From: a virus
Length of the DNA: 64,000 bases
IMG/VR virus record: IMGVR_UViG_3300025674_000019
Location: 69,290-133,289 of that record
Reading direction: 5' to 3' (one strand)
The first letter of the stretch is position 1. Every line of letters starts with the position of its first letter. A model generated the notes under the pieces. The model ran no database searches. It saw nothing but the letters and a program-made list of their open reading frames with translations, and was not told the DNA's origin. Below, piece after piece: positions 13,367 to 46,468 of the stretch. The position numbers and the translations under genes were made by a program.

Positions 13367-14089
13367 TCACAGCTGCCTAATGCTAGACTGCATCATCTTG
13401 GTAAAGTTTAGGTTTGTTTTACCAGTAAGCTCAATGGCTCTGATGCCTGACTCTAGAGATACTACCTCATCACTGGGAGTATCTGTGCCGCATAGCGCAT
13501 ATTGGTAAGTACCTTGGTTAGTTAGCTTAAATACATTACCAAAAATGTTCTTGTGATACTTAGTAATATTCCCGGCCTTTATAGCGTGCTCTCCTCCATC
13601 CCATATGTTTGAGCAAGAGATACCGCCTACAGCAAGGCAGCCCTTAACATCGTTCCAGAAGTATTGATTATTCTGGATATCTGCGGGGCCCTCCATATAG
13701 ATATCTACATAGATTATATCGTATTTTTCTCCTGCCTTGTTCGCCTTCTGCAGGAACTTATTAGCGTCTTCCCCGACTAAACGAGTGTTAGCGTCAGGCA
13801 TGAACTCAAAGTGCTCCTGGGCTACCTGGAACATGAGCGGGCGAAGGTCTACTATAGTCTTCTGCACTTCTGGAAAGTTATCTATCCAGAACTTAGGAAG
13901 GCTGCCTCCGCCCATTCCCAAGAATAATACTTTCTTAGGACTAGGGTGAAGCGCCGACATAAAGCACATCTTTTGGATGTACTCTAGCTCAGGTATATTA
14001 GGGCTAGATAAATTAAGCCGGGATTGTACCCCGGTAGCGTTCTTCTTAGTGAACTGTATATCTTTGAAGATCCCGTCCCTAAGAAGCAC
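13367..14089 (-). CDS. Spermidine-synthase-like SAM-dependent methyltransferase domain (probably reached by -1 frameshift from 14182-15144)
   Basis: VQS...EY.Q.M, VLFLGMGGGSLP, IVDLRP, EDA..FL, YDIIYVDIY; frame stays open upstream to the A9 run with no earlier start codon. Confidence 0.8.
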   Translation of the reverse strand: MLLRDGIFKDIQFTKKNATGVQSRLNLSSPNIPELEYIQKMCFMSALHPSPKKVLFLGMGGGSLPKFWIDNFPEVQKTIVDLRPLMFQVAQEHFEFMPDANTRLVGEDANKFLQKANKAGEKYDIIYVDIYMEGPADIQNNQYFWNDVKGCLAVGGISCSNIWDGGEHAIKAGNITKYHKNIFGNVFKLTNQGTYQYALCGTDTPSDEVVSLESGIRAIELTGKTNLNFTKMMQSSIRQL

Positions 14090-14181: not shown

Positions 14182-15144
14182 CTAGTTTTTTTTTAAGTTG
14201 GATTTCTTAGTAAAGTTATTTACTAGAGCAGCGGCTAGTGCGGCTACCCCCGCTGGAAGAGCCACGTTCTTGCCGATTGAAGACATCAAGTCCTGCGCGG
14301 GATCTCCAGTAGGGGCGGGGAACACAATATTGTTAGACACTGCTGCCCCGCTAGAAGCACCTGGGGACATAGAGACTGGAAGTTGGTTAACCGAGTGAGC
14401 TGCTTGCTGCCTAGCCTGCTCCTGCTGAGCAAGTAAAGTGTCAAGCTTAGTTCCTAGCCTGTCTACTTTGGCCATCGCAGACTCGGCGTTAAACCCGCTC
14501 TGCCTTCTAATCTGAGCGCGCTGCATGTGCCTGGGAATAGAAGGCTTATCCCTCATAGTAGCTACAGCAAGATCATTAATTTGATCCTGAAGGTACTGCA
14601 AGTTTAAGCCACCGTCCATTTGAGCTGTTTTCTTCCTAGCGCTGCCGTCAGCTTTCTGGTTCTTAGGCCAAAGCTCTCGGCGCGACCAGTAGTTAGCACT
14701 GAACTTATCGTCCTTGCCTTTGATCCCCGCACTACGAGCAAGGTAGCTCTTCTTCGCCTTTGCAGAGTAGTTATGCTTATATCCGCGAGCACCAAAGTTA
14801 ACTACTTTGACCTTGTCGCCCTTTTTAGCCAGCACTCGCTTTTTGTACTTGCTACCCTTAGGTGCTGCCTTTGGCTTGTTGTACCCGGGAAAGATCTCGT
14901 CCCTGTATTTTAGCTTACCAGAGGGAAGCCGCTCTACTCCTTCTGGGGCTGCGGTTTTCTCTACTATTGAGCTTTCAGGAATACCTCTTTGCTCTGCTAA
15001 AACGCTCTTCCACTTACTTCCATACCTCTTTTTAAGGCTAAGTATATTCTTGTTATTTGGGTCATAACTCATGCCGCGGAGGGAAGCCTCCGCGGTCTTC
15101 TCAAGCAGATTCTGTAGTAGCCTAACACTAGGGTCGGTGCTCAT
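14182..15144 (-). CDS. K-x-A-linked multidomain protein containing a DUF5754-like module
   Basis: EKTA, EKTA and KKTA linkers; module KVVNFGARGY...KKSYLAR...FSANYWSRRELW. Confidence 0.7.
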   Translation of the reverse strand: MSTDPSVRLLQNLLEKTAEASLRGMSYDPNNKNILSLKKRYGSKWKSVLAEQRGIPESSIVEKTAAPEGVERLPSGKLKYRDEIFPGYNKPKAAPKGSKYKKRVLAKKGDKVKVVNFGARGYKHNYSAKAKKSYLARSAGIKGKDDKFSANYWSRRELWPKNQKADGSARKKTAQMDGGLNLQYLQDQINDLAVATMRDKPSIPRHMQRAQIRRQSGFNAESAMAKVDRLGTKLDTLLAQQEQARQQAAHSVNQLPVSMSPGASSGAAVSNNIVFPAPTGDPAQDLMSSIGKNVALPAGVAALAAALVNNFTKKSNLKKN

Positions 15145-15183: not shown

Positions 15184-18100
15184 TCAGTCGCCCAACTTGC
15201 TGCGCTTTTTACCTTTGTGCAAGCCGTGATCTGCGTGCTGCTCGCCTTCACGAGTAGCTTTGTTCTTCTTACGAATCGCCGCCTTTAGCTTATTGCGACC
15301 CTTCTTAGAAGACTTTAGCGCGTCTATAGACTTAGCTGGTAGGTAGACCCCTTTGCTCTTGGCTTCTTTAGTGGTTAGATCTTGCTTGCTGCGCATAGCT
15401 CTAGCTACCTGTAGTAGCTTAGCTGCGTTTTCGTTAGCTCTAGACACTATACCAGGATCCATCTCTCCTGTTTCTACGTTAAATTCATCCCCAGCAACCT
15501 GGACCCCGCCCCCTATACCGATGCCTTTAATCTCAGTATCCAGCTGGTTAGCCAGACCACCAAGTGCTAAAGCAGACCTGGGTGTGCCCGCACCAGATAG
15601 GAGAGCGTAAGGCTTGTACTGCTGGTTCTCTTTATCTAGTGTCCTGTGAAGGAACTGCATTACTCTACCACTGGGACCATAGTTAAATACGGGGGTAGAC
15701 AGAACCATAGCGTCTGCGTCGGTTAATCTTTTCTTATAATCATCGTACCAGTCTGTATCCCAGTCGTAGGTATCAGGCATGTCCCCCATATCACGCATGT
15801 CCATCCAGTCAACTTCGGCACCTTGGCTCTCCAGATAGTCCCTGTAAGTTTCTGCAAGTGCGCGAGACCTAGACAGCTCCTCAGGGTCGTTACCTGTGGA
15901 GCCGCTTAGGATAGCCACCCTAAGCCTGTTTTTTGCTGCCTCTGAGGCTAAAGATTTTGCAGCAGCAAGCTTTTTCAAATCAGATGCATATGTCATAGAA
16001 CCCTCCTTTTTACGCTCACCGCTCCACTGCCAGTCTTGCTTAGTCCATTTCTTAAGCTTGTTATTCTTAGCAGTGGGCTTTTTGCCTTTGTACCTTCCGC
16101 CTGAGTCTTTATAGTACTTTACAGCTAGCTGAGCTGCACGAGCAGACCACTTGCCGCCCATCTTAGCCTTTGCCCGTGCCTTAGCTGCAGCCCACTTCTT
16201 AGGGTCTCGCTTAGTAGCGGTGCCTTTGGGCTTTTTGGCTTTGGAGGTCTTCTCGGAGCCGCCCATAGCGTATAACCCAGCAGCCCCTAATCCTGCGACG
16301 GGGATACCTAGCATTAAGGCTCTTCTTAGTTCCGGGTTGTTAGCAGCTGCAGCCGCGACTTCCTCTGCTGCAGAAGCCATTGTAGGCTGGCTAGCAACAG
16401 CTTCTCTTAGGGACTCTGTAGCCTGAGTACTTGGAGGAGGAGATACCTTAGAAAGAGCTGTGTCCACAGGCTGCATTCGCTGCTGTCTTTGCACTACCCT
16501 CTCAAGGGGGGTAGGCGTAACTACTGGAGTAGGGGCAACTACTGGGGTAGGAGCGACTGGAGCCCTGGAAACTGGAGTAGGAGCAACTACTGGGGTAGGC
16601 GTAACTACTGGAGTAGGGGAGACTGGAGCCCTGGAAACTGGAGTAGGAGCAACTACTGGGGTAGGCGTAACTACTGGAGTAGGGGCAACTACTGGAGTAG
16701 GCTTAGGCCTAACCACCGGAGCACTAAAGTCTAGCGCTAGTTGCTCACTTCTAGGGGCGACAGCCGCGGACTCCGCAGACGCAGAGACCCTCCGCACAGG
16801 GCCAGCTGCAGGCTCAAATAAGAATCTTTGCCCCCTCTCAGTTGTCTGAGTAGGCAGTACCACAGGAGCTGGGGCGGGGGCGGCAAGCTGTGCTTGGACC
16901 TGAGCTTTAGCTCTTTCTTGAGCTCTAGCCTTATCTCTCCGTAGCCTGCGTATACGGTTGTCTTCCTTTACTCTGCGCATAGCCTCAGCTCTGGCACCCT
17001 CCGCAGCCTGGTACTCTCTCCTTAGTTGACCTAAGCTATCAGGAGATAAAGGCTTGAGGTTATGTTCCCACATATGGTTTATACCTAGTGGATCTTTGCT
17101 ACTAAAGGTGAGCTCATTCCACCTCTGGTATAGAGGGTCCTGCTTTTGGACGTACATCTCTATTTCTCTCTGAAGAGGATGCGCTGCCCCTATTTGAGAG
17201 CTATGAATTCTTTCAGAACCTACGCGGCCCATATTCAGCTCATTCTCTAGAATCTTAAGCCCTCCACCACCACTTCTACCCTTATTAAGAGAGTTGACTA
17301 CGCTAGAGGTTATCTGCTCTGCTGATGCCTGAGGGTTAGCTGCCTTTGCGCCCTCAACGAGGCGCTGAACAGTCTCTAGCGCATTACCTTTGAGCTTAGC
17401 TTGCTTAGTTACACTGGCGTTCTTCTGCATAGAAGACGCTATAGCACTAGATAGTTTATAGTTATTTTTCATAGCAGTACCGTCTCCTCCCGCAAACACG
17501 GAGGCCGCTACCCCGCCCCCAGCCATACCTGTACCAACGAGGGCATTCATCCAGTTAGCCCCAGTAGAACCTAGATCTTTGTACCGACTGTTTATGTACT
17601 TACGGCCTCCAGCCCCAAGAGCCAAGCCGCCGATAGCTCCTGCGAGTGCTCCCTGAGCACCCTTGTTTTCTCCAGAGGCTGCGTACCCGGCGAGGGCCCC
17701 CGTAGCAGCGTCGAAAGCTCTGAACTTCATAGAAGCAGACTTGCGCATAACAGACTCCATCGGTGCTTGGCTATACAGCCTTTTAGGGGCTCCTCCAGTG
17801 CTTTTAGGGCCAAACCTCATAGTAGCCCCAAGTAGAGCACCTCGTGCCTTTTGCTTAGCTCCTTGAACTCGCTTCTCTATAGAGGCAGCTAGCCGGCCGC
17901 TAATAGTATTCTCCCGGTTCCATTGCCTACGCTGCTCCGGAGTCATACTCCTAAGCCTGTTTCTCTCGGCTATAGCTAGACTAGACCTAGTCCTAAGTTC
18001 TCTACCTAGACCAGCCTCTACTGCGCCAACAGACGGAATTAAGGTCTGAGCTTTTTGGGCTACTTGATCAGTAAGGGTGGTCCCCCTCCGTATAGCCCCA

Positions 18101-38017: not shown

Positions 38018-40897
38018 TTATACTCCTTTAAAGAGGGCGTTGCCGTCAGAGTCTGTCTCCCAGTATGTATCTGGAAGAGCAAATGTTGTTCCTGCGTCGA
38101 AGATCCAGACGGCACCCGAGGACTCCCCGTCACCGCTCTCACTAATTGTATGAGCGTAGTCCTGGCCGCCAATACTATGAGCTGCCACAGCTAAGAAGCT
38201 CTTCGCCGCCTCCAGCATATCAAAGGACCATGCTCCGTAGTGCCTATTTACTATTGTGGAGGGGTAGACCACACTAGAGTTGCCCGACCTTTGCCAAATA
38301 CTACCATCCATTCCTTTTAGGTGCTCAGGCTGTATAGCATCATCTGCAACCTTAGCCTCTGTGATGGCGTCATCTGCAACCTTGGCAGTGGTTACCTGGG
38401 CATCAGCCAGATGCTCCGTGTCGATAGCTCCGGCAGCGATATGCTCACTATCTACAGCGTCATCAGCTATCTTAGACCCGGTAATAGCGTCATCTGCTAT
38501 ATAGTCGGAAGCCAGGGCGGTGCCTTGCCAAGTACCAGTAGCTATGGTGCCAAGAGTGGTAATGCTAGCGCTTCCAGCCCAAGTACTGAGAGCAGTGTTC
38601 TCTACGTTATCGAGGCTTAGGTCTGATTTAACCTCGTCGAAGCTTTGGCTCTCTAGGCCGTTAGCTGTGAACCTAGCGTACTCGCCCGCAGCCACATCCG
38701 CAGAGTCTACCTCTACAGTGTTATTGTCAGCTATCCCGAAGGTCAGGATGTCTTGCTTAGCGGAAAGCTCACTAGAGATCTTGTTAGAAGACCATAGCTC
38801 ATCCTCAGCTGTACGATCATCAAATATATAAGTATCGGCGTCAGCGCCGTCGGCACCCGCAGGTCCTTGCTCACCTTGAATACCTTGAGGCCCCTGGGCG
38901 CCATCAGCACCGTCAGCACCAGCGGGACCCTGAATACCCTGAGGCCCTTGGGCACCATCAGCACCATCAGCACCTCGAAGATCAGGTGTGCTGAAGTCAG
39001 TGCCATCATCAAAGGTGAAGGTAACTACGCCAGCGTTGAAGGTAGTAGCGGTAATCCCGTTACCATCAGCACCATCAGCCCCGGCTGGGCCTTGAATACC
39101 CTGAGGCCCTTGGGCGCCATCAGCACCATCAGCCCCTGCGGGACCCTGAATACCCTGAGGCCCTTGGGCACCATCAGCACCATCAGCACCTCGAAGATCA
39201 GGTGTGCTGAAGTCAGTGAAGTCAGTGCCATCATCAAAGGTGAAGGTAACTACGCCAGCGTTAAAGGTAGTAGCGGTAATCCCGTTACCATCAGCACCAT
39301 CAGCCCCAGCTGCTCCTGCTGGTCCTGCTGGCCCTTGAGCACCGTCAGCACCATCAGCCCCGGCTGGGCCTTGAATACCCTGAGCACCGTCAGCCCCCCG
39401 AAGATCAGGTGTACTGAAGTCAGTGCCATCATCAAAGGTGAAGGTAACTACGCCAGCGTTGAAGGTAGTAGCGGTAATCCCGTTACCATCAGCCCCAACA
39501 GCACCATCAGCACCGGCTGCTCCTGCTGGCCCTTGTGGGCCTATGGGGCCTTGTATACCTTGATCACCTTGGGCTCCCTGAACCCCTTGTATGCCTTGCT
39601 CTCCTTGAGGGCCCTGCGCGCCTTGAGGGCCCTGTGCGCCTTGAGGCCCTTGGATAGATCCGCCGCTAACAAAGTTAGTACCATCATGGATGTGTAGGCT
39701 GTCGTCTGCCTGTACTATGTACGCATCTCCAGCAGAGGCGTTTACAGGCAGGTCATTAGTAGTTGCTACTGAGCCCTTAAATGTAATGCCTGAGCCTGCA
39801 GCTCCTTGGGGCCCCGCAGGACCCTGCTCTCCCTGGATACCTTGAATACCCTGAAGACCTTGTGGGCCTTGAGCCCCCTCAGCACCTGCTGGACCTTGGT
39901 CTCCTTGAGGGCCTTGAGGGCCTACTGCACCTTGCGGACCCGCGTCTCCTTGGAGGCCTTGAATACCTTGCGGGCCTGCGTCTCCTTGAGGGCCTTGTGG
40001 GCCGACTGCCCCGTCGGCACCGTCAGCTCCCGCTGGGCCTTGAGCACCCTGTAAGCCCTGCTCTCCTTGAGGCCCTTGAGGCCCGACTGCACCGTCAGCT
40101 CCCGCTGGGCCTTGAGCACCCTGTAAGCCCTGCTCTCCTTGAGGCCCTTGAGGCCCGACTGCACCGTCAGCTCCCGCTGGTCCTTGGATACCTTGTGGCC
40201 CCTGGTCTCCTTGAGGGCCTTGAGGCCCGACTGCACCATCAGCGCCTCTAAGGTCTGGAGTACTGAAGCTAGAGCCGTCAGTAAAGCTAAACTTAACTAC
40301 ACCGTCAGTAATAGTGGCAGCCGTGATTCCAGTACCAAGTACTGTTTTCTGCTGATTATTATCTGTTACAGCTAGAGTGCCAGTATCAGTGTCAAAACTA
40401 ACGGTAGCGTCACCTAGAAATAATGAGTTCTCACTAAGGTATAAGTGCCTAAACTTATTCTCAGCGCTACCTAGGTCCTGTGCCTTGTTACCTGCAGGTA
40501 TAATATGAGTGTGAGGAGTAATAGTGTTAGCTGTTACACTGAGTGTAGTAGTGCTATCTACAGTTACACGAACTTCCCCAGCCCCACCTGCACCGTCTAG
40601 GACCTCTACAGTAGAGTCACCTTCAGTGATCTTATCAGTGAAGCCACCGCCCCCACCGCCATTAGCCTGTACGTAATTTACTACGGCTTGCTGAGTAGGA
40701 GCTACAGTAGCAGAGGGGTTGGCCCCGTCTATCGCGTCGTTAGAAGGAGCCGCTAGGGCAGCACCTGCAACAGTTAGGGTACTAGCTAGTACTACAGGCC
40801 CATCCGCGTTGATGCCTCCGACATATAGCGTATTGAACCTGCGGTTACTAGAACCTAAGTCATGACTTTTATTTTGTTCTGTTCTAATCGCAGTCAT
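38018..40897 (-). CDS. Collagen-like fibre protein
   Basis: Long Gly-X-Y runs; repeated DGNGITATTFNAGVVTFTFDDGTDFSTPDLRG; IADDA(V/I)T repeats; DLGS...F..LY motifs. Confidence 0.85.
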   Translation of the reverse strand: MTAIRTEQNKSHDLGSSNRRFNTLYVGGINADGPVVLASTLTVAGAALAAPSNDAIDGANPSATVAPTQQAVVNYVQANGGGGGGFTDKITEGDSTVEVLDGAGGAGEVRVTVDSTTTLSVTANTITPHTHIIPAGNKAQDLGSAENKFRHLYLSENSLFLGDATVSFDTDTGTLAVTDNNQQKTVLGTGITAATITDGVVKFSFTDGSSFSTPDLRGADGAVGPQGPQGDQGPQGIQGPAGADGAVGPQGPQGEQGLQGAQGPAGADGAVGPQGPQGEQGLQGAQGPAGADGADGAVGPQGPQGDAGPQGIQGLQGDAGPQGAVGPQGPQGDQGPAGAEGAQGPQGLQGIQGIQGEQGPAGPQGAAGSGITFKGSVATTNDLPVNASAGDAYIVQADDSLHIHDGTNFVSGGSIQGPQGAQGPQGAQGPQGEQGIQGVQGAQGDQGIQGPIGPQGPAGAAGADGAVGADGNGITATTFNAGVVTFTFDDGTDFSTPDLRGADGAQGIQGPAGADGADGAQGPAGPAGAAGADGADGNGITATTFNAGVVTFTFDDGTDFTDFSTPDLRGADGADGAQGPQGIQGPAGADGADGAQGPQGIQGPAGADGADGNGITATTFNAGVVTFTFDDGTDFSTPDLRGADGADGAQGPQGIQGPAGADGADGAQGPQGIQGEQGPAGADGADADTYIFDDRTAEDELWSSNKISSELSAKQDILTFGIADNNTVEVDSADVAAGEYARFTANGLESQSFDEVKSDLSLDNVENTALSTWAGSASITTLGTIATGTWQGTALASDYIADDAITGSKIADDAVDSEHIAAGAIDTEHLADAQVTTAKVADDAITEAKVADDAIQPEHLKGMDGSIWQRSGNSSVVYPSTIVNRHYGAWSFDMLEAAKSFLAVAAHSIGGQDYAHTISESGDGESSGAVWIFDAGTTFALPDTYWETDSDGNALFKGV

Positions 40898-41764: not shown

Positions 41765-42745
41765 TTAGACGATTGGGTTGAAGTTATGAAGTTTAATAAT
41801 GCTGTTAGCGTTACCGATACCGATACCGGGCGCGCTGTAGGACCAGAACTCGATCATGTCAGCTTCTTGCTTAATGAAGAGAGTTGCATCCTGAAGAAGG
41901 AAGAAGTTCCCGAGGTAGTTCTGCGGAGCAAAGAGATAGATCTCGTTGTCCTCTACGATGTCGTTCTTGATGGTGGTGATAACAGGAACCCCAAAGAGCT
42001 TATCCTCACCGTCCATGCCGTTGTCGTAGTGGCGGCTCACAACGTCATTACCAACGTCAGTGTGGTCGAACTTAAGAGCTTCCATGAAGGTGCTCTTAGT
42101 CATAAGAAGCTTGCCGATAGGAAGCCTCTTGCTCGTCATGCTCTGGAAGAGCTGCGCGATGAGCGACTTAGAGAGCGGCTTCTCATTGCAGTTTAAGCGG
42201 TTATTCTCTCGAATCTGCTGCTGCGTAAAGAAAGTATCCGCAGCATTATTACCTAGAGTAGCGATACCACCAACCTGGCCCATAGCCGCGCCAACGGTCT
42301 CCATGAACTTCTTATCTTCCTCGTTCGCCATGTCCTTGACCGAGTTATCGGTGAGGATCTTGCGAATGTCGTTCTGATAAGTGAGGAGCTCGAACTTGCT
42401 CTTCGTGAAGTGCTCAGTCTCGATCTTACCGAAGCTAACACTATAGCGTGGGCCACGGAAGAACGTACGCTGACCGGAACCCTTGAAGGTCACGAAGGTA
42501 GCGACCGAATCGGGCTCCTTCTCGATGATCTTCTTGGGCTGGTCAGTGTGCTCATCGCGGTCGATCTCATCTGCACCAATCTCGACTGGCTCTAGGATCT
42601 CACGCGCAAAGCTCTCCTCGCGAAGCTTGCTGCGGATAAAGCGGCTGCCCTCGTCCTGGGCCTCCTTGACTCGGCCCTCATCCAGCTTACGAACGAAGCT
42701 CTGATTGATGAACTGGGCACTAATTCCTGAAGTCTCAACATTCAT
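41765..42745 (-). CDS. Major capsid protein (HK97 fold)
   Basis: FIRSKLREESFAREIL, EED..F, LFGVPVITTIK, IYLFAPQNYLG.F, GIGIGN; strongly C/G-ending codons; followed by a terminator. Confidence 0.85.
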   Translation of the reverse strand: MNVETSGISAQFINQSFVRKLDEGRVKEAQDEGSRFIRSKLREESFAREILEPVEIGADEIDRDEHTDQPKKIIEKEPDSVATFVTFKGSGQRTFFRGPRYSVSFGKIETEHFTKSKFELLTYQNDIRKILTDNSVKDMANEEDKKFMETVGAAMGQVGGIATLGNNAADTFFTQQQIRENNRLNCNEKPLSKSLIAQLFQSMTSKRLPIGKLLMTKSTFMEALKFDHTDVGNDVVSRHYDNGMDGEDKLFGVPVITTIKNDIVEDNEIYLFAPQNYLGNFFLLQDATLFIKQEADMIEFWSYSAPGIGIGNANSIIKLHNFNPIV

Positions 42746-44983: not shown

Positions 44984-46468
44984 TTAGGAATGTATGAGCG
45001 CTTGACCTAGGTGAGTAAAGTACTTATCAGGGTCCGTCTTAAATAAGTTTATGTTCCCTAGCTCTTGCACGCTAGAACTCTTTATGAACCCAGAATGATT
45101 ATTTAAGACATCTGCAGCCCTAGACTGTAGGTATGCCAGCTTATTGCTAGAGTTTAAAGCTTTTCCTACATAAACTAAGGATGCTAAGCAAGTAATGCCG
45201 GCAACCTTATACATCTCTGAAGACAAACCCTCGGCAGAAGCGTGCTTAAGGCTATACCCATGCGATGCTAGAACCACCCTGACTTCAGGGGCATTCGAGC
45301 TCTCTACAGCCACATCCGGTAGCCCCGACATGTCAGAAACTGCCTCTGCAATCTCTGGGTGCTTAGACAAGACTCTAAGCATGTCTGACTGCAAAGATAC
45401 GAGCTTACCTGCTAATCCAGAAGGAGCCTTAGACCCTGTAAGCTTCATAAACATAAGGTCTAGGAACTCGGGGGTCATTAGGAGGATACCATTATCTCCA
45501 AGCATGCTAAGAGACTCTGACAGGTTCAGGGAACCTAAATCTCTTATAGCGGAGTCCGGGAGCCTCTTGTAGCTAGATACAATCTTAGGAGCTAAGGTCT
45601 TAAGCCACTTTACTGCTAGGTGCTTTTCCCCTTCTCCCATATCTTCAGTAGGTATGTGGTCTAAGCCTACTGCTACACCCTCTATAGTCTTATCTATATC
45701 GGCGGCTTTATTAAGGTACTTAGCTATAACAGTCAGACCTGCAGCCTTCTCAGCAAGGTAAGCACTAGATTCTCCCCGCTCGCGAGCTCCGCCATCAAAA
45801 GCGACTTTCTTCAGCATGTACCCCGTCTTATCCGCAGGTCGGTAGACTACAGATATATCAAAGAAGTTAGGGGCAGGGTTATCTGCGCATACCACCCTGC
45901 CGTCAGGGTAAATATCGTTCATTTGGTACTTAAGGTGCGTACAGTACTGCGCCCTAGTTGGGGCCTTATTGCCGCAGATGCTGCAAACATCGTATTTAAT
46001 ACGACAGCCCATGCTTACAGCTACGTCTTTTTGCTCCCTTACCTTCTGAACTATGTCGGGACACAGAGCATCATCTAGTTGCATGATGATCTCTACTCTA
46101 TGCATATCGTGGTTGTAAAAGCTCTTTATAACCTTACCGATAGCTTTTGCGGGGTCTTTGTTGACGTGTGACTTAAACACATGGGCGTTAGACTCAAAAG
46201 TATGGTGATGCTTTATAAGCTCAGACTCTCTGAACGCATCGCCATTTCGGTTAGGGCCGTAGTATTCACTAGCGCCCATTGCTAGGACTAGTATACTAGT
46301 CTTGCCCGGTTCTTTCTTTACATGCTTAGAGTACTCAAGGGCCTCTGAAGCTACCTTCTCCATGGAGAGGGTGTCGTAGTCTAATAGCCTAACAGTAGGC
46401 TCGATGCCTCCCGATTTAGATACTAAATAAGGGTCTGTTTCTACTATTTTCTCTAAGTAACCGGGCAT
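44984..46468 (-). CDS. Prohead maturation protease
   Basis: GPNRNGDAF, HVF..H.NKDP..AIG, VAVSMGC (catalytic Ser) with CSICGN..YCTH zinc insert, FFDISVV..PAD. Confidence 0.8.
   Translation of the reverse strand: MPGYLEKIVETDPYLVSKSGGIEPTVRLLDYDTLSMEKVASEALEYSKHVKKEPGKTSILVLAMGASEYYGPNRNGDAFRESELIKHHHTFESNAHVFKSHVNKDPAKAIGKVIKSFYNHDMHRVEIIMQLDDALCPDIVQKVREQKDVAVSMGCRIKYDVCSICGNKAPTRAQYCTHLKYQMNDIYPDGRVVCADNPAPNFFDISVVYRPADKTGYMLKKVAFDGGARERGESSAYLAEKAAGLTVIAKYLNKAADIDKTIEGVAVGLDHIPTEDMGEGEKHLAVKWLKTLAPKIVSSYKRLPDSAIRDLGSLNLSESLSMLGDNGILLMTPEFLDLMFMKLTGSKAPSGLAGKLVSLQSDMLRVLSKHPEIAEAVSDMSGLPDVAVESSNAPEVRVVLASHGYSLKHASAEGLSSEMYKVAGITCLASLVYVGKALNSSNKLAYLQSRAADVLNNHSGFIKSSSVQELGNINLFKTDPDKYFTHLGQALIHS

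Follow-up and report, generated by a model that had tools for sequence, protein, structure and literature searches.

The window, a 64,000-nucleotide stretch of a metagenomic viral contig, carries on its minus strand a giant open reading frame, P0001, of 2,344 amino acids (Table 1). The frame claimed for this interval in the preliminary description is real and starts at an ATG; the plus-strand frame over the same interval is riddled with stop codons. Counted by homology boundaries, P0001 consists of approximately 12 modules, separated by junctions that bear a short lysine-containing motif. Its neighbors are an endolysin-like gene and a minor head/pilot-like gene; the latter lies directly downstream and encodes the sequences LLEKTAE (from residue 15) and IVEKTAA (from residue 63). 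The head module, with the prohead protease and the capsid protein, lies 23-27 kb from P0001 on the same strand.

Table 1. Features of the window discussed in the text (window positions; junctions are numbered by the position of their K).
Feature	Residues	Position	Strand	Basis or remark
P0001, multi-module ORF, 2,344 aa		15184..22218	minus	ATG start, stop codon included
Module 1, HNH-like nuclease	1-78	21985..22218	minus	Pfam, PHROG
Junction KTSA	79-82	21973..21984	minus	AIAE directly before
Module 2, predicted ADP-ribosyltransferase-fold domain	83-252	21463..21972	minus	AlphaFold, VIA-align
Junction KSAS	253-256	21451..21462	minus	AILE directly before
Module 3, 'DPKGWLQWY' domain	257-361	21136..21450	minus	AlphaFold pLDDT 91-96
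Junction KTAS	362-365	21124..21135	minus	
Module 4, Gly/Ala-rich hydrophobic hairpin (366-454) and soluble part	366-632	20323..21123	minus	Sequence
Double junction KTAG-LASAIIE-KTAS	633-647 (K at 633, 644)	20278..20322	minus	
Module 5, second hairpin copy, Pro-rich stretch, different soluble part	648-957	19348..20277	minus	
Junction KTAG	958-961	19336..19347	minus	
Module 6, PAP2 phosphatase	962-1184	18667..19335	minus	Pfam PF01569
Junction KTAG	1185-1188	18655..18666	minus	
Module 7, no family assigned	1189-1492	17743..18654	minus	
Junction KSAS	1493-1496	17731..17742	minus	
Module 8, glycine-zipper-like hydrophobic segment	1497-1598	17425..17730	minus	Sequence
Junction KNAS	1599-1602	17413..17424	minus	
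Module 9, Pro/Thr/Val repeats and hydrophobic end	1603-1989	16252..17412	minus	Sequence
Junction KTSK	1990-1993	16240..16251	minus	
Module 10, basic DUF5872-like domain	1994-2082	15973..16239	minus	Atlas lead
Junction KLAA	2083-2086	15961..15972	minus	
Module 11, NADPH-dependent FMN reductase / flavodoxin-like	2087-2283	15370..15960	minus	Pfam PF03358
Junction KEAK	2284-2287	15358..15369	minus	
Module 12, basic C-terminal tail (KGVYLP...HGLHKGKKRSKLG)	2288-2344	15187..15357	minus	
Downstream basic gene, 320 aa		14182..15144	minus	phrog_220 'minor head protein and DNA pilot', E 1.9e-20
Scaffold-like protein, 206 aa		44354..44974	minus	8 K-x-A-S sites vs 0.1 expected
Prohead protease, 494 aa		44984..46468	minus	phrog_18299 head maturation protease, E 2.6e-12

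The functional assignments proposed earlier for individual modules fared differently. The FMN reductase (residues 2100-2217, 52.8 bits against a cut-off of 24) and the PAP2 phosphatase (residues 1071-1156, a marginal pass at 28.0 bits against 27.2) both lie above the Pfam gathering cut-offs. The HNH assignment of module 1, which also heads the homologue P0003, is backed by PHROG HNH and endonuclease VII families (E 3.6e-6 to 4e-3, HNH at 3.6e-6), but the Pfam score (PF01844, residues 36-70) stays below the cut-off, at 19.6 against 21.4 bits; the AlphaFold model of this module is poor (pLDDT 48-68 over residues 21-80). Module 10 was proposed to be DUF5872-like, and this remains an Atlas lead (score 0.92, 28 of 30 matches; in the three nearest clusters, 20-51% of members carry DUF5872), as an hmmscan of the module and of one free-standing homologue with PF19197 returned nothing at E<=1.

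For module 2, previously called ART-like, the Pfam search gave no match and Foldseek gave none at E<=0.001 (top match Arr at E 0.14), but the predicted structure does point to an ADP-ribosyltransferase (ART) fold. Residues 111-250 are modelled at pLDDT >90, and VIA-align matched the module with KptA (9ld3_A; Z 8.3, rmsd 2.4, 76 residues aligned), the Rhs ART toxin TreX (8s2m_B; Z 7.8), pertussis toxin S1 (Z 7.5) and Arr (Z 6.8); ART-fold proteins formed the majority of the 50 VIA-align rows, with middling Z values. The model thus supports placing module 2 in the ART superfamily at the level of fold only. Separately, candidate catalytic residues (IYHGS..., HLYELD) can be read by eye in the module 2 sequence.

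The remaining modules are less well defined. Module 3 had no match in the Pfam search, module 4 had no Pfam family at E<0.1, and module 7 had no Pfam match and a top Atlas score of 0.77, which is a lead only. Module 8 has a weak HSP to P0002 921-1061, and phrog_15511 (unknown function) matches residues 1839-2040 of P0001 (E 4.5e-7). The hairpins at 362-454 and 644-736 have one and the same amino acid sequence, the 13 differences among their 279 bases all being synonymous. The module 12 tail is common to P0003, P0005, P0006 and a 193-aa ORF of the 147-kb relative G001. Pfam and PHROG scans of the whole of P0001 detected no embedded peptidase family; modules 7 and 9 lack an assignment.

All of the junction strings named in the preliminary description were found in P0001, at 12 sites from K79 to K2284. 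The bare K-x-A that it took as the linker motif occurs at background frequency (23 observed, 24.5 expected from composition), with 10 of the 23 falling at the 12 junctions. The pattern K.A[SAG] is marginal (12 vs 7.0 expected, reached by 88 of 2,000 shuffles), and three of its matches fall within modules (KPAG-451, KPAG-733 and KWAA-2008); KT[AS][SAGK], on the other hand, is enriched (7 vs 0.68 expected, reached in none of 2,000 shuffles). Because the loose K-x-A count stands at background, the real signal is the position of the sites rather than their number. The working motif is K-x-A-[S/A/G], mostly K-T-A-S following an A-I-x-E helix end, with junctions 79 (KTSA), 1990 (KTSK) and 2284 (KEAK) deviating from K-x-A-S.

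The earlier claim that the motif sits at domain boundaries was borne out by the homologues. Among six shuffled homologues (P0001-P0006), 77 of 149 internal HSP ends fall at most 12 aa from a candidate site, compared with 24.7 +/- 6.2 (maximum 49) under random site placement, and none of 5,000 trials reached 77. A search of 1.84 billion representatives returned 2,084 proteins matching the first 1,190 residues of P0001 at E<=0.001; among the 150 matches listed, the best stretches run from 1-83, 79-256, 250-366 and 958-1178. At individual junctions, the HSP with P0002 begins exactly at residue 79, the ends of HSPs and of listed representative matches cluster at 250-259 around KSAS-253, and the listed representative matches end at 357-366 near junction 362. 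Junction 958 is approached from its C-terminal side by HSPs to P0002, P0003 and P0004 (beginning at 949-964) and by listed representative matches (beginning at 958-976), and at junction 1185 HSPs and listed representative matches end at 1161-1178. Further along, HSPs to P0003, P0005 and P0006 begin at 1989-1998 (junction 1990), HSP ends lie at 2072-2109 (junction 2083, KLAA), and HSPs to P0003 and P0006 begin at 2278-2284 (junction 2284). Combined, these results support the junction motif as a marker of module boundaries.

The AlphaFold model, which covers residues 1-372 only (mean pLDDT 84.5), agrees with this in part. It contains two confident domains, at 111-250 and 261-360, and the sole sharp dip in confidence between them coincides with KSAS-253 (block 251-260 at a mean of 61, against 88-98 before and 96 after). 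The site at 79-82, in contrast, is modelled within helix 62-85, near its end, in a block with pLDDT 60-80.

Homologues display the same architecture with different contents. P0002-P0006 share modules with P0001 at 51-83% identity in differing orders and sets, and the comparison called for in the preliminary description showed modules exchanged at the junction sites in these proteins; the HNH junction of P0003 contains no lysine (...AIVDRAPAE...). The design recurs in five independent proteins from other sources, 1,316-2,234 aa long, and in many of the 150 listed representatives; among 39 long representatives chosen from those 150 the Pfam tally included NUDIX (12), SNF2 (12), PAP2 (11) and AAA_18 (8). 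Module 3 is present in 111 of 153 stored proteins, at N-terminal, internal or C-terminal positions, and elsewhere stands alone as a protein of ~135-230 aa, in many other viral contigs, MAG contigs of giant viruses among them. For the 84 representative proteins with >30 residues ahead of module 3, K.A[SAG] is found within 16 aa upstream of the module in 46 (3.6 expected) and is missing in 38. Relatives of module 10 are encoded in 546 viral stretches; in all 80 of the loci kept from these, the module 10 frame is 76-206 aa long, most begin with M-(S/A)-TATKRDP, and the free-standing frames start within a few residues of the post-junction module start. In G001, P0001-type modules are distributed over several ORFs, one of which ends where P0001 has junction 362; its 193-aa ORF has a 13-aa leader ending in ...ALLQKHAGS ahead of module 10, and the genome encodes junction-bearing ORFs together with a protease that is 67% identical. 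Among cultured phages, Arash included, homology to the polyprotein is confined to module 3 (7 records with 2-4% query coverage each).

The motif extends beyond P0001 to the head module. Across its 16 ORFs, K.AS occurs 28 times against 2.1 expected (13-fold enriched); P0001 has 5 against 1.1 expected, and the remaining 135 ORFs are at background (17 vs 17.0 expected). The whole-proteome count is 50, whereas permuted patterns give 12-25, and KTAS occurs 12 times (1.12 expected) spread over 9 proteins. The sheath, fiber and tail-size ORFs listed have 0-1 K.AS each. The 206-aa scaffold-like protein, in which the sites are densely repeated, is largely helical, and several head-module proteins have short N-terminal leaders terminating in K-x-A-S. 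The invariant core of the head-module motif is K-x-A-[S/A]; the residue before K is E in 10 of 38 sites and is elsewhere also V, Q, I, T or M. Enrichment near the protease is also seen elsewhere: in 30 non-redundant viral loci chosen solely for holding a protease homologue, pooled counts were 418 against 98.9 expected for K.AA and 287 against 56.8 for K.AS, and both occurred in 30 of 30 loci. In Salmonella phage Arash, a cultured relative whose protease is 48.6% identical, K.AS occurs 17 times around the protease (4.1 expected) and twice in 45 kb elsewhere (3.9 expected), and Bxz1 (protease ~30% identical) has a weak enrichment (6 vs 1.3). The text of the Arash virion proteome paper contains zero occurrences of both protease and cleavage.

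The ORF named earlier as the protease is supported in that role by its predicted fold as well as by its PHROG family. VIA-align matched it with varicella-zoster virus (VZV) protease (Z 9.9, rmsd 3.1, 117 residues aligned, 9% identity), T4 gp21 (5jbl_A; Z 9.6, rmsd 3.3, 129/165 aligned) and HCMV protease (Z 7.2), and the first unrelated row followed at Z 5.5. Foldseek alone was weak (gp21 at E 0.029), and sequence searches gave no Pfam or PDB match; the modelled structure nevertheless supports an assemblin/T4-gp21 fold. The folded core (approximately residues 40-213, pLDDT ~70-89, against <50 for residues 1-39 and 214-271) is flanked by K38-V-A-S41 and K221-V-A223, with KKVA 220-223 located at the end of the core. 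In an alignment of 24 sequences (A1), K38 and A40 are kept in at least 90%, and S152, H101, D105 and K220 are invariant. Such near-invariant placement of the motif on either side of the protease core is what self-processing sites would be expected to show.

These observations suggest, with moderate confidence, that P0001 is a precursor of approximately 12 modules that fold independently, polyvalent cargo which the phage's own prohead protease cuts into pieces, its cleavage, packaging and injection being inferred. In the proposed mechanism, K-x-A-[S/A/G], typically as A-I-x-E-K-T-A-S, would be the recognition motif of this protease, and the P0001 precursor would enter the prohead core together with the scaffold. 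The protease would then trim itself at the K-x-A sites flanking its core, shred the 206-aa scaffold-like protein at its eight K-x-A-S sites and cut the precursor at ~11 internal junctions into ~12 products. The released modules would remain in the head and exit with the DNA upon infection, the hydrophobic modules going to the envelope and the enzymes to host targets. Because such a code would be short and portable, modules could be gained, lost, duplicated, fused and split at the junctions, as seen in relatives. Hydrophobic hairpins within a capsid fit awkwardly with packaging, and no capsid-targeting signal was identified in P0001.

Alternatively, P0001 may stay uncleaved or be trimmed only at its ends, with K-x-A-S and the A-I-x-E helix serving as a linker or docking element, perhaps a repeated peptide that targets the protein to the head by attaching to the scaffold, the inside of the capsid or the portal. 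Junction 79-82 being modelled within a helix agrees with this, eight K-x-A-S in a mostly helical 206-aa protein could be a structural or binding repeat, and some polyvalent or virion proteins, such as the N4 virion RNA polymerase, are packaged whole according to the available text of PMC5512222. An uncleaved protein is nonetheless considered unlikely, since the motif brackets, almost invariantly, the folded core of the protease itself, terminates short N-terminal leaders of otherwise unrelated proteins and coincides with natural gene fission exactly at junctions in G001, and since modules exist as free-standing proteins elsewhere. The docking and cleavage roles are compatible with each other.

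Cutting of the junctions by a different protease, whether one from the host acting after injection or a further peptidase of the phage, would require another cause for the head-module enrichment; it is very unlikely, as the enrichment is restricted to genes near the prohead protease here, in Arash and in 30 other loci, and the motif brackets the core of that very enzyme. It is still less probable that the junctions are recombination scars, in which conserved DNA drives cassette exchange and the encoded peptide has no role. Module order and content do vary in every homologue, and one cassette is duplicated inside P0001, but the codons vary among the 12 junctions (AAG ACC TCT GCT, AAG AGT GCT AGT, AAA ACA GCT AGC, AAA ACG GCG GGA and others), so the peptide is conserved and not the DNA, and the same peptide motif is found in unrelated head proteins. 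That the long frame arose as an artefact of assembly or gene calling, such as a chimeric contig or frames run together, has a negligible probability despite the metagenomic source of the contig, given a frame open over 2,344 codons and the recurrence of the design in the five independent long proteins and many of the listed representatives.

The proposed cleavage of P0001 by the prohead protease can be compared with several known systems. Proteases of the gp21 and gp175 types cut after Glu, at L/I-x-E in T4 and at A/S/G-x-E in phiKZ and SPN3US, unlike the K-x-A-S motif described here. Herpesvirus assemblin cleaves (V/L/I)-x-A|S sequences at the Ala-Ser bond, and Lys at P3 is not known to be part of its consensus. 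Its fold is held in common with the present protease, without sequence similarity (9% identity), and its x-A|S resembles the x-A-S here; by this analogy, the scissile bond probably lies between the small residues (A|S). The T4 gp21 system (internal proteins, Alt) and the gp175/gp245 systems of phiKZ, 201phi2-1 and SPN3US share with the present phage a prohead protease of the gp21/assemblin fold, a short consensus repeated in scaffold or propeptide regions, and N-terminal leaders that end at the motif. In those systems the protease cleaves itself and cargo is ejected with the DNA, as is predicted for the present phage. According to the available text on SPN3US, 14 prohead-protease sites were found in 9 proteins, with propeptide fragmentation and C-terminal self-cleavage, and 13 of the 14 sites remove N-terminal propeptides to leave one mature protein (PMC10052503); the ~11 internal junctions of P0001 would instead release ~12 different products.

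P0001 also resembles the polyvalent proteins in its many disparate domains, virion-gene setting and strongly mosaic orthologues, and the domain types overlap (ART and nuclease in P0001; NUDIX, P-loop kinases and SNF2 helicases in its relatives). As presented in the available text of Iyer et al. 2017 (Iyer, Burroughs, Anand, de Souza, Aravind; J Bacteriol, PMC5512222), polyvalent proteins have 2-15 disparate effector domains per polypeptide, with domain release by peptidases and delivery with DNA both predicted and the analogy to viral polyproteins made explicit. Release is attributed there to embedded peptidases (a zincin-like MPTase and a C-terminal assemblin-like domain), which are frequent among polyvalent proteins and not universal; the word 'linker' has zero occurrences in that text. 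In P0001, by contrast, Pfam and PHROG scans detect no embedded peptidase, and a short motif shared with the scaffold marks its junctions. What sets P0001 apart is that release is predicted to act in trans and to be coded in the linkers, with no peptidase found within the protein. The preliminary description had called the strategy rarely described, which understates the polyvalent proteins with predicted release (PMC5512222) and the multi-site cutting of head proteins in SPN3US (PMC10052503).

Phage P1 DarB/DdrB and the N4 virion RNA polymerase are likewise phage proteins of very large size that travel in the capsid and reach the host. They differ in that cuts are single or few, a recurring junction code is missing and the domains are others; in the available text, P1 DdrB and DarA are proteolytically processed (PMC5512222) and the N4 polymerase is packaged uncut. 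Polyproteins in RNA viruses of eukaryotes also combine many functions in one chain that a viral protease splits at a short consensus, but P0001, in a tailed dsDNA phage, would serve as cargo of the virion rather than as a replication or structural proteome, and its protease would be a capsid maturation enzyme.

More broadly, and tentatively, a large, hitherto undescribed clade of 130-190-kb myoviruses (Arash and many uncultured marine and soil phages) may use a K-x-A-S 'address and scissor' code read by an assemblin-fold prohead protease whose Ala|Ser specificity resembles that of herpesviruses. This code would dismantle the scaffold and turn ORFs into injectable cargo, either through 10-40-aa leaders or as polyproteins of up to ~2,300 aa diced into a dozen effectors, with cassettes swapped, duplicated, fused and split at the sites. 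If the junctions are cut, P0001 would be a clear case of a true polyprotein in a tailed phage that loads many effectors in fixed proportion, the enzyme that matures the capsid would also serve as a polyprotein protease, and K-x-A-S would be a new specificity within the gp21/assemblin family. A simple sequence rule would then predict virion cargo and mature protein ends across a poorly annotated clade of large phages, and the motif would offer a portable tag for putting foreign proteins into phage heads. Overall, such cutting would give a concrete mechanism behind the 'release of domains' proposed for polyvalent proteins.

The window, which contains the giant ORF, forms the right-hand end (64 kb) of a viral metagenome contig of 133,289 bp with an estimated completeness of 83%; a plus-strand reading of the same interval was ruled out, its frame being full of stops. 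The preliminary description had named a series of lysine-led strings joining the roughly 12 modules, and every one of these strings is present (see table). Within this ORF, the PAP2 (28.0 vs. a cut-off of 27.2 bits) and FMN_red (52.8 vs. 24 bits) domains were matched in Pfam, whereas HNH fell below its cut-off (19.6 vs. 21.4 bits) and was matched by PHROG HNH families with E-values down to 3.6e-6. No Pfam family was found for the remaining modules when nine separate modules and homologues were scanned; the basic module 10 (residues 1994-2082) was tied to DUF5872 by Atlas as a lead, and the top Atlas score for module 7 (0.77) was uninformative. Additionally, a Gly/Ala-rich hydrophobic hairpin of 93 residues is present twice with identical amino acids, and the 13 differences among its 279 bases are all synonymous (third codon position in 11 cases, first in 2), indicating strong purifying selection on both copies.

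Features of the window, junctions of the giant ORF (numbered by the residue position of K) and K.AS counts by gene group
Feature	Window coordinates	Strand	Details
240-aa ORF	13367-14089	minus	two genes downstream of the giant ORF
320-aa basic protein	14182-15144	minus	directly downstream of the giant ORF
Giant ORF	15184-22218	minus	single open frame, 2,344 codons; K.AS 5 seen vs. 1.1 expected
Junctions, N-terminal half			KTSA-79, KSAS-253, KTAS-362, KTAG-633, KTAS-644, KTAG-958, KTAG-1185
Junctions, C-terminal half			KSAS-1493, KNAS-1599, KTSK-1990, KLAA-2083, KEAK-2284
Hairpin, first copy	20857-21135	minus	residues 362-454
Hairpin, second copy	20011-20289	minus	residues 644-736
Collagen-like repeat protein	38018-40897	minus	959 aa
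Capsid protein	41765-42745	minus	326 aa
16 head-module ORFs	43.3-55.5 kb		K.AS 28 seen vs. 2.1 expected
Prohead protease	44984-46468		494 aa; matches head-maturation-protease PHROG
RNA polymerase beta-like protein	58284-62651	minus	1,455 aa; head operon
Remaining 135 ORFs			K.AS 17 seen vs. 17.0 expected

The bare K-x-A motif that had been proposed as the linker is not enriched in the giant ORF (23 seen vs. 24.5 expected), and the 12 occurrences of K.A[SAG] (7.0 expected) were reached by 88 of 2,000 shuffles. The sole form standing out was K-T-[AS]-[SAGK], with 7 occurrences vs. 0.68 expected and 0 of 2,000 shuffles reaching that number. The junction signal is positional rather than one of count alone. 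A word-indexed search returned six proteins at E<=0.001, five of which have modules in common with the giant ORF; these homologues (1,316-2,234 aa, 51-83% identity) differ in module sets and orders, with NUDIX, P-loop kinase and other modules added, in agreement with the anticipated module shuffling. According to stringent BLASTP among these six proteins, 77 of 149 internal alignment ends lay no more than 12 residues from a candidate site, whereas random site placement gave 24.7 +/- 6.2 (maximum 49) and reached 77 in none of 5,000 trials; alignment ends lying 12 aa or less from either terminus of a protein were excluded, and those counted are not phylogenetically independent. With residues 1-1190 as the query, exhaustive HMMER searching retrieved 2,084 proteins at E<=0.001 (551 at E<=1e-10), and among the 150 representatives listed the best-matching stretches were bounded by junctions (1-83, 79-256, 250-366 and 958-1178). 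Codon usage varies freely across the 12 junctions, indicating that conservation lies in the peptide and not in the DNA; a DNA-level recombination signal was rejected on this ground. Against 50,697 phage records, a nucleotide search with the giant ORF gave no match, and a protein search gave seven records, each covering 2-4% of the query and matching module 3 exclusively.

Several modules were found as separate units in other viruses. Relatives of module 10 occur in 546 viral stretches, and each of the 80 loci kept encodes it in a frame of 76-206 aa; most of these frames begin with M-(S/A)-TATKRDP, which is the start of the module in the giant ORF, a few residues past the junction. The DPKGWLQWY module (module 3, residues 257-361) is a free-standing protein of about 135-230 aa in many viral contigs, giant-virus MAG contigs among them, and was seen in proteins of about 135-354 aa in phages and in giant-virus MAG contigs (L087-L120, several labelled GVMAG). 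The domain is widespread among viruses and has neither an assigned function nor a Pfam family. Its core is N-terminal in 27 of 111 collected proteins that contain it; where more than 30 residues precede the core (84 proteins), K.A[SAG] lies in the 16 residues directly upstream in 46, vs. 3.6 expected from the same proteins, and is absent there in 38. In the 147-kb relative contig G001 (L002 1-6559), modules and junctions are divided among several adjacent ORFs, one of which terminates at the equivalent of junction 362. A 193-aa ORF of this contig starts with a 13-residue leader that ends in ...ALLQKHAGS and continues with modules 10 and 12 (the basic tail), and a 490-aa ORF comprises two NUDIX modules linked by QQKTAS, then NKTSS; gene fusion and fission thus occur at the junctions. 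SNF2-helicase and NUDIX domains were each seen in 12 of 39 long representatives (among P0008-P0155) sharing modules with the giant ORF. Some proteins, such as P0107-P0121, carry the DPKGWLQWY module at the very start without K-x-A-S; multi-module proteins with this domain thus form at least two lineages.

Residues 1-372 were modelled with AlphaFold from an alignment of 42 rows, some of them noisily aligned; the model had a mean pLDDT of 84.5 and contained two confident domains (111-250 and 261-360, block means 88-98), with poor confidence for the HNH part. The expectation that junctions separate folded domains held for KSAS-253, which falls in a dip to 61 (block 251-260) between the two domains, and the pLDDT drops again over 361-372, the site of KTAS-362. 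The junction at 79-82 is placed towards the end of a modelled helix (62-85), with a pLDDT of 60-80, and is not clearly a loop. Foldseek gave no match at E<=0.001 for this model or for that of the protease, and fold assignments were taken from VIA-align. By that comparison, the modelled domain 112-249 has an ADP-ribosyltransferase (ART) fold, with KptA (Z 8.3), an Rhs ART toxin (Z 7.8) and pertussis toxin S1 (Z 7.5) among the matches and ART-fold proteins making up most other rows. One of the ART-fold matches, a cyanophage A4 pre-ejectosome chain (9k3a_B, residues 1419-1645; Z 5.4, rmsd 5.5, 92 aligned), aligned to residues 113-248 of the model, which hints at ART-fold domains in the ejection proteins of other phages.

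The distribution of the motif outside the giant ORF was assessed on a greedy selection of 152 ORFs from the entire contig, in which K.AS occurred 50 times vs. 20.2 expected (12-25 for permuted patterns). KTAS was the top over-represented non-repeat tetrapeptide by number of proteins (12 vs. 1.12, in 9 proteins). The 206-aa scaffold-like ORF directly after the protease gene carries 8 K-x-A-S sites vs. 0.1 expected, and short leaders that terminate in K-x-A-S are present on several head-module proteins. The 38 head-module sites share the core K-[L/T/V/I]-A-[S/A], in which K, A and S/A are fixed and a preceding E is preferred and not required. A T4-like reading in which I/L-x-E is followed by the cut (AIAE/K, AILE/K, AIIE/K) was rejected, as E precedes K in 10 of the 38 sites. 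No K.A[SA] was found in the capsid protein; this protein and the 21 homologues found (L121-L153) have a conserved K-E-A-x near residue 27 (G-R-V/I/T-K-E-A), replaced by K-T-A-A in one homologue, which could be a short propeptide site or a conserved N-arm and is not counted as evidence. Downstream of the giant ORF, the 320-aa protein matches phrog_220 ('minor head protein and DNA pilot', E 1.9e-20) and contains LLEKTAE at residue 15 and IVEKTAA at residue 63, on which basis it may be another processed cargo protein. The 240-aa ORF had the sole Pfam match among ten neighbouring genes, a marginal one to spermidine synthase/methyltransferase (23.5 vs. a cut-off of 22.9 bits). The collagen-like G-x-x protein matches many tail-fibre PHROGs (best E 3.6e-97) and has no K-x-A-S.

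Relatives of the protease were found in 33 viral loci at 39-64% identity. In a 24-sequence alignment, from which one offered row was left out for a stop codon, at least 90% of sequences retain K38 and A40, and all of them share K220, S152, H101 and D105. The core of the AlphaFold model (~40-213) is confident and its ends (1-39 and 214-271) are disordered, such that K38-V-A-S41 and K221-V-A223 bracket the predicted fold. Varicella-zoster protease (Z 9.9) and T4 gp21 (Z 9.6) were the sole VIA-align chains at Z>=8, followed by HCMV protease (7.2) and by unrelated folds from 5.5; by its modelled fold the protease belongs to the assemblin/gp21 class. Among the ten neighbouring genes scanned with Pfam, neither the protease nor the capsid protein had a match, and PDB sequence searches with the protease alone and with the 24-sequence profile gave no real match, returning designed coiled coils against the C-terminal helix. 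The protease also best matches a 1,263-position PHROG (phrog_2774). In cluster C mycobacteriophages the homologous domain forms the N-terminal ~220 aa of a 1,370-aa protein, represented in Bxz1 by gp95 (L156 12016-16128), which adjoins the 1,277-aa gp94.

Counts pooled over the 20-kb surroundings of 30 non-redundant homologues of the protease were 418 vs. 98.9 expected for K.AA and 287 vs. 56.8 for K.AS, each present in 30 of 30 loci, and the remaining top patterns were motifs conserved within the protease itself. Contig G001, with its junction-bearing ORFs, encodes a protease 67% identical. Among cultured phages, the closest relative is Salmonella phage Arash, whose protease gp222 is 48.6% identical and in which K.AS occurs 17 times vs. 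4.1 expected in the 40-kb head region, mostly in gp220, gp223 and gp225, and 2 times vs. 3.9 in 45 kb elsewhere. The Arash paper presents a virion proteome and makes no mention of proteolysis (PMC10585845). The more distant Mycobacterium phage Bxz1 showed weak enrichment (6 vs. 1.3). The RNA polymerase beta-like protein of the window matches PHROG RNAP beta families (E 6.6e-23), and its Arash counterpart, gp206, is the most-detected protein of the Arash virion proteome (PMC10585845), so this clade probably packages a multisubunit RNAP.

The simplest account is that proteases of this clade recognise K-x-A-[S/A] as their site. By analogy with herpesvirus assemblin, which cuts at an Ala-Ser consensus, the scissile bond may lie between A and S in the junctions. 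The main rival is that the giant protein is uncut or little cut and that the motif serves for docking or as a linker. Combined, the results partly support a protease-diced cargo polyprotein, through evidence that is strong but indirect: the arrangement of junctions in the preliminary description was confirmed, and packaging of the protein, its cleavage and injection of the products are what we infer. Neither a K-x-A-S prohead-protease motif nor a junction-coded phage polyprotein was found in the literature, which is weak evidence of absence given that motif strings are poorly searchable and subscription journals were outside the scope.

The giant ORF can likewise be placed in the 'polyvalent protein' class described by Iyer et al. 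2017, who predicted delivery with the DNA and domain release by embedded peptidases (PMC5512222); no embedded peptidase was detectable in the giant ORF by Pfam and PHROG scans. The T4 internal proteins and Alt, together with the phiKZ and SPN3US head proteins, follow the same logic as that proposed here, and for SPN3US the published work describes 14 sites in nine proteins, multiply-cut propeptides and protease self-cleavage (PMC10052503). The giant ORF would encode virion cargo as a polyprotein precursor, diced as the head matures, and would differ from these systems in its motif and in giving many different mature products where they give one.
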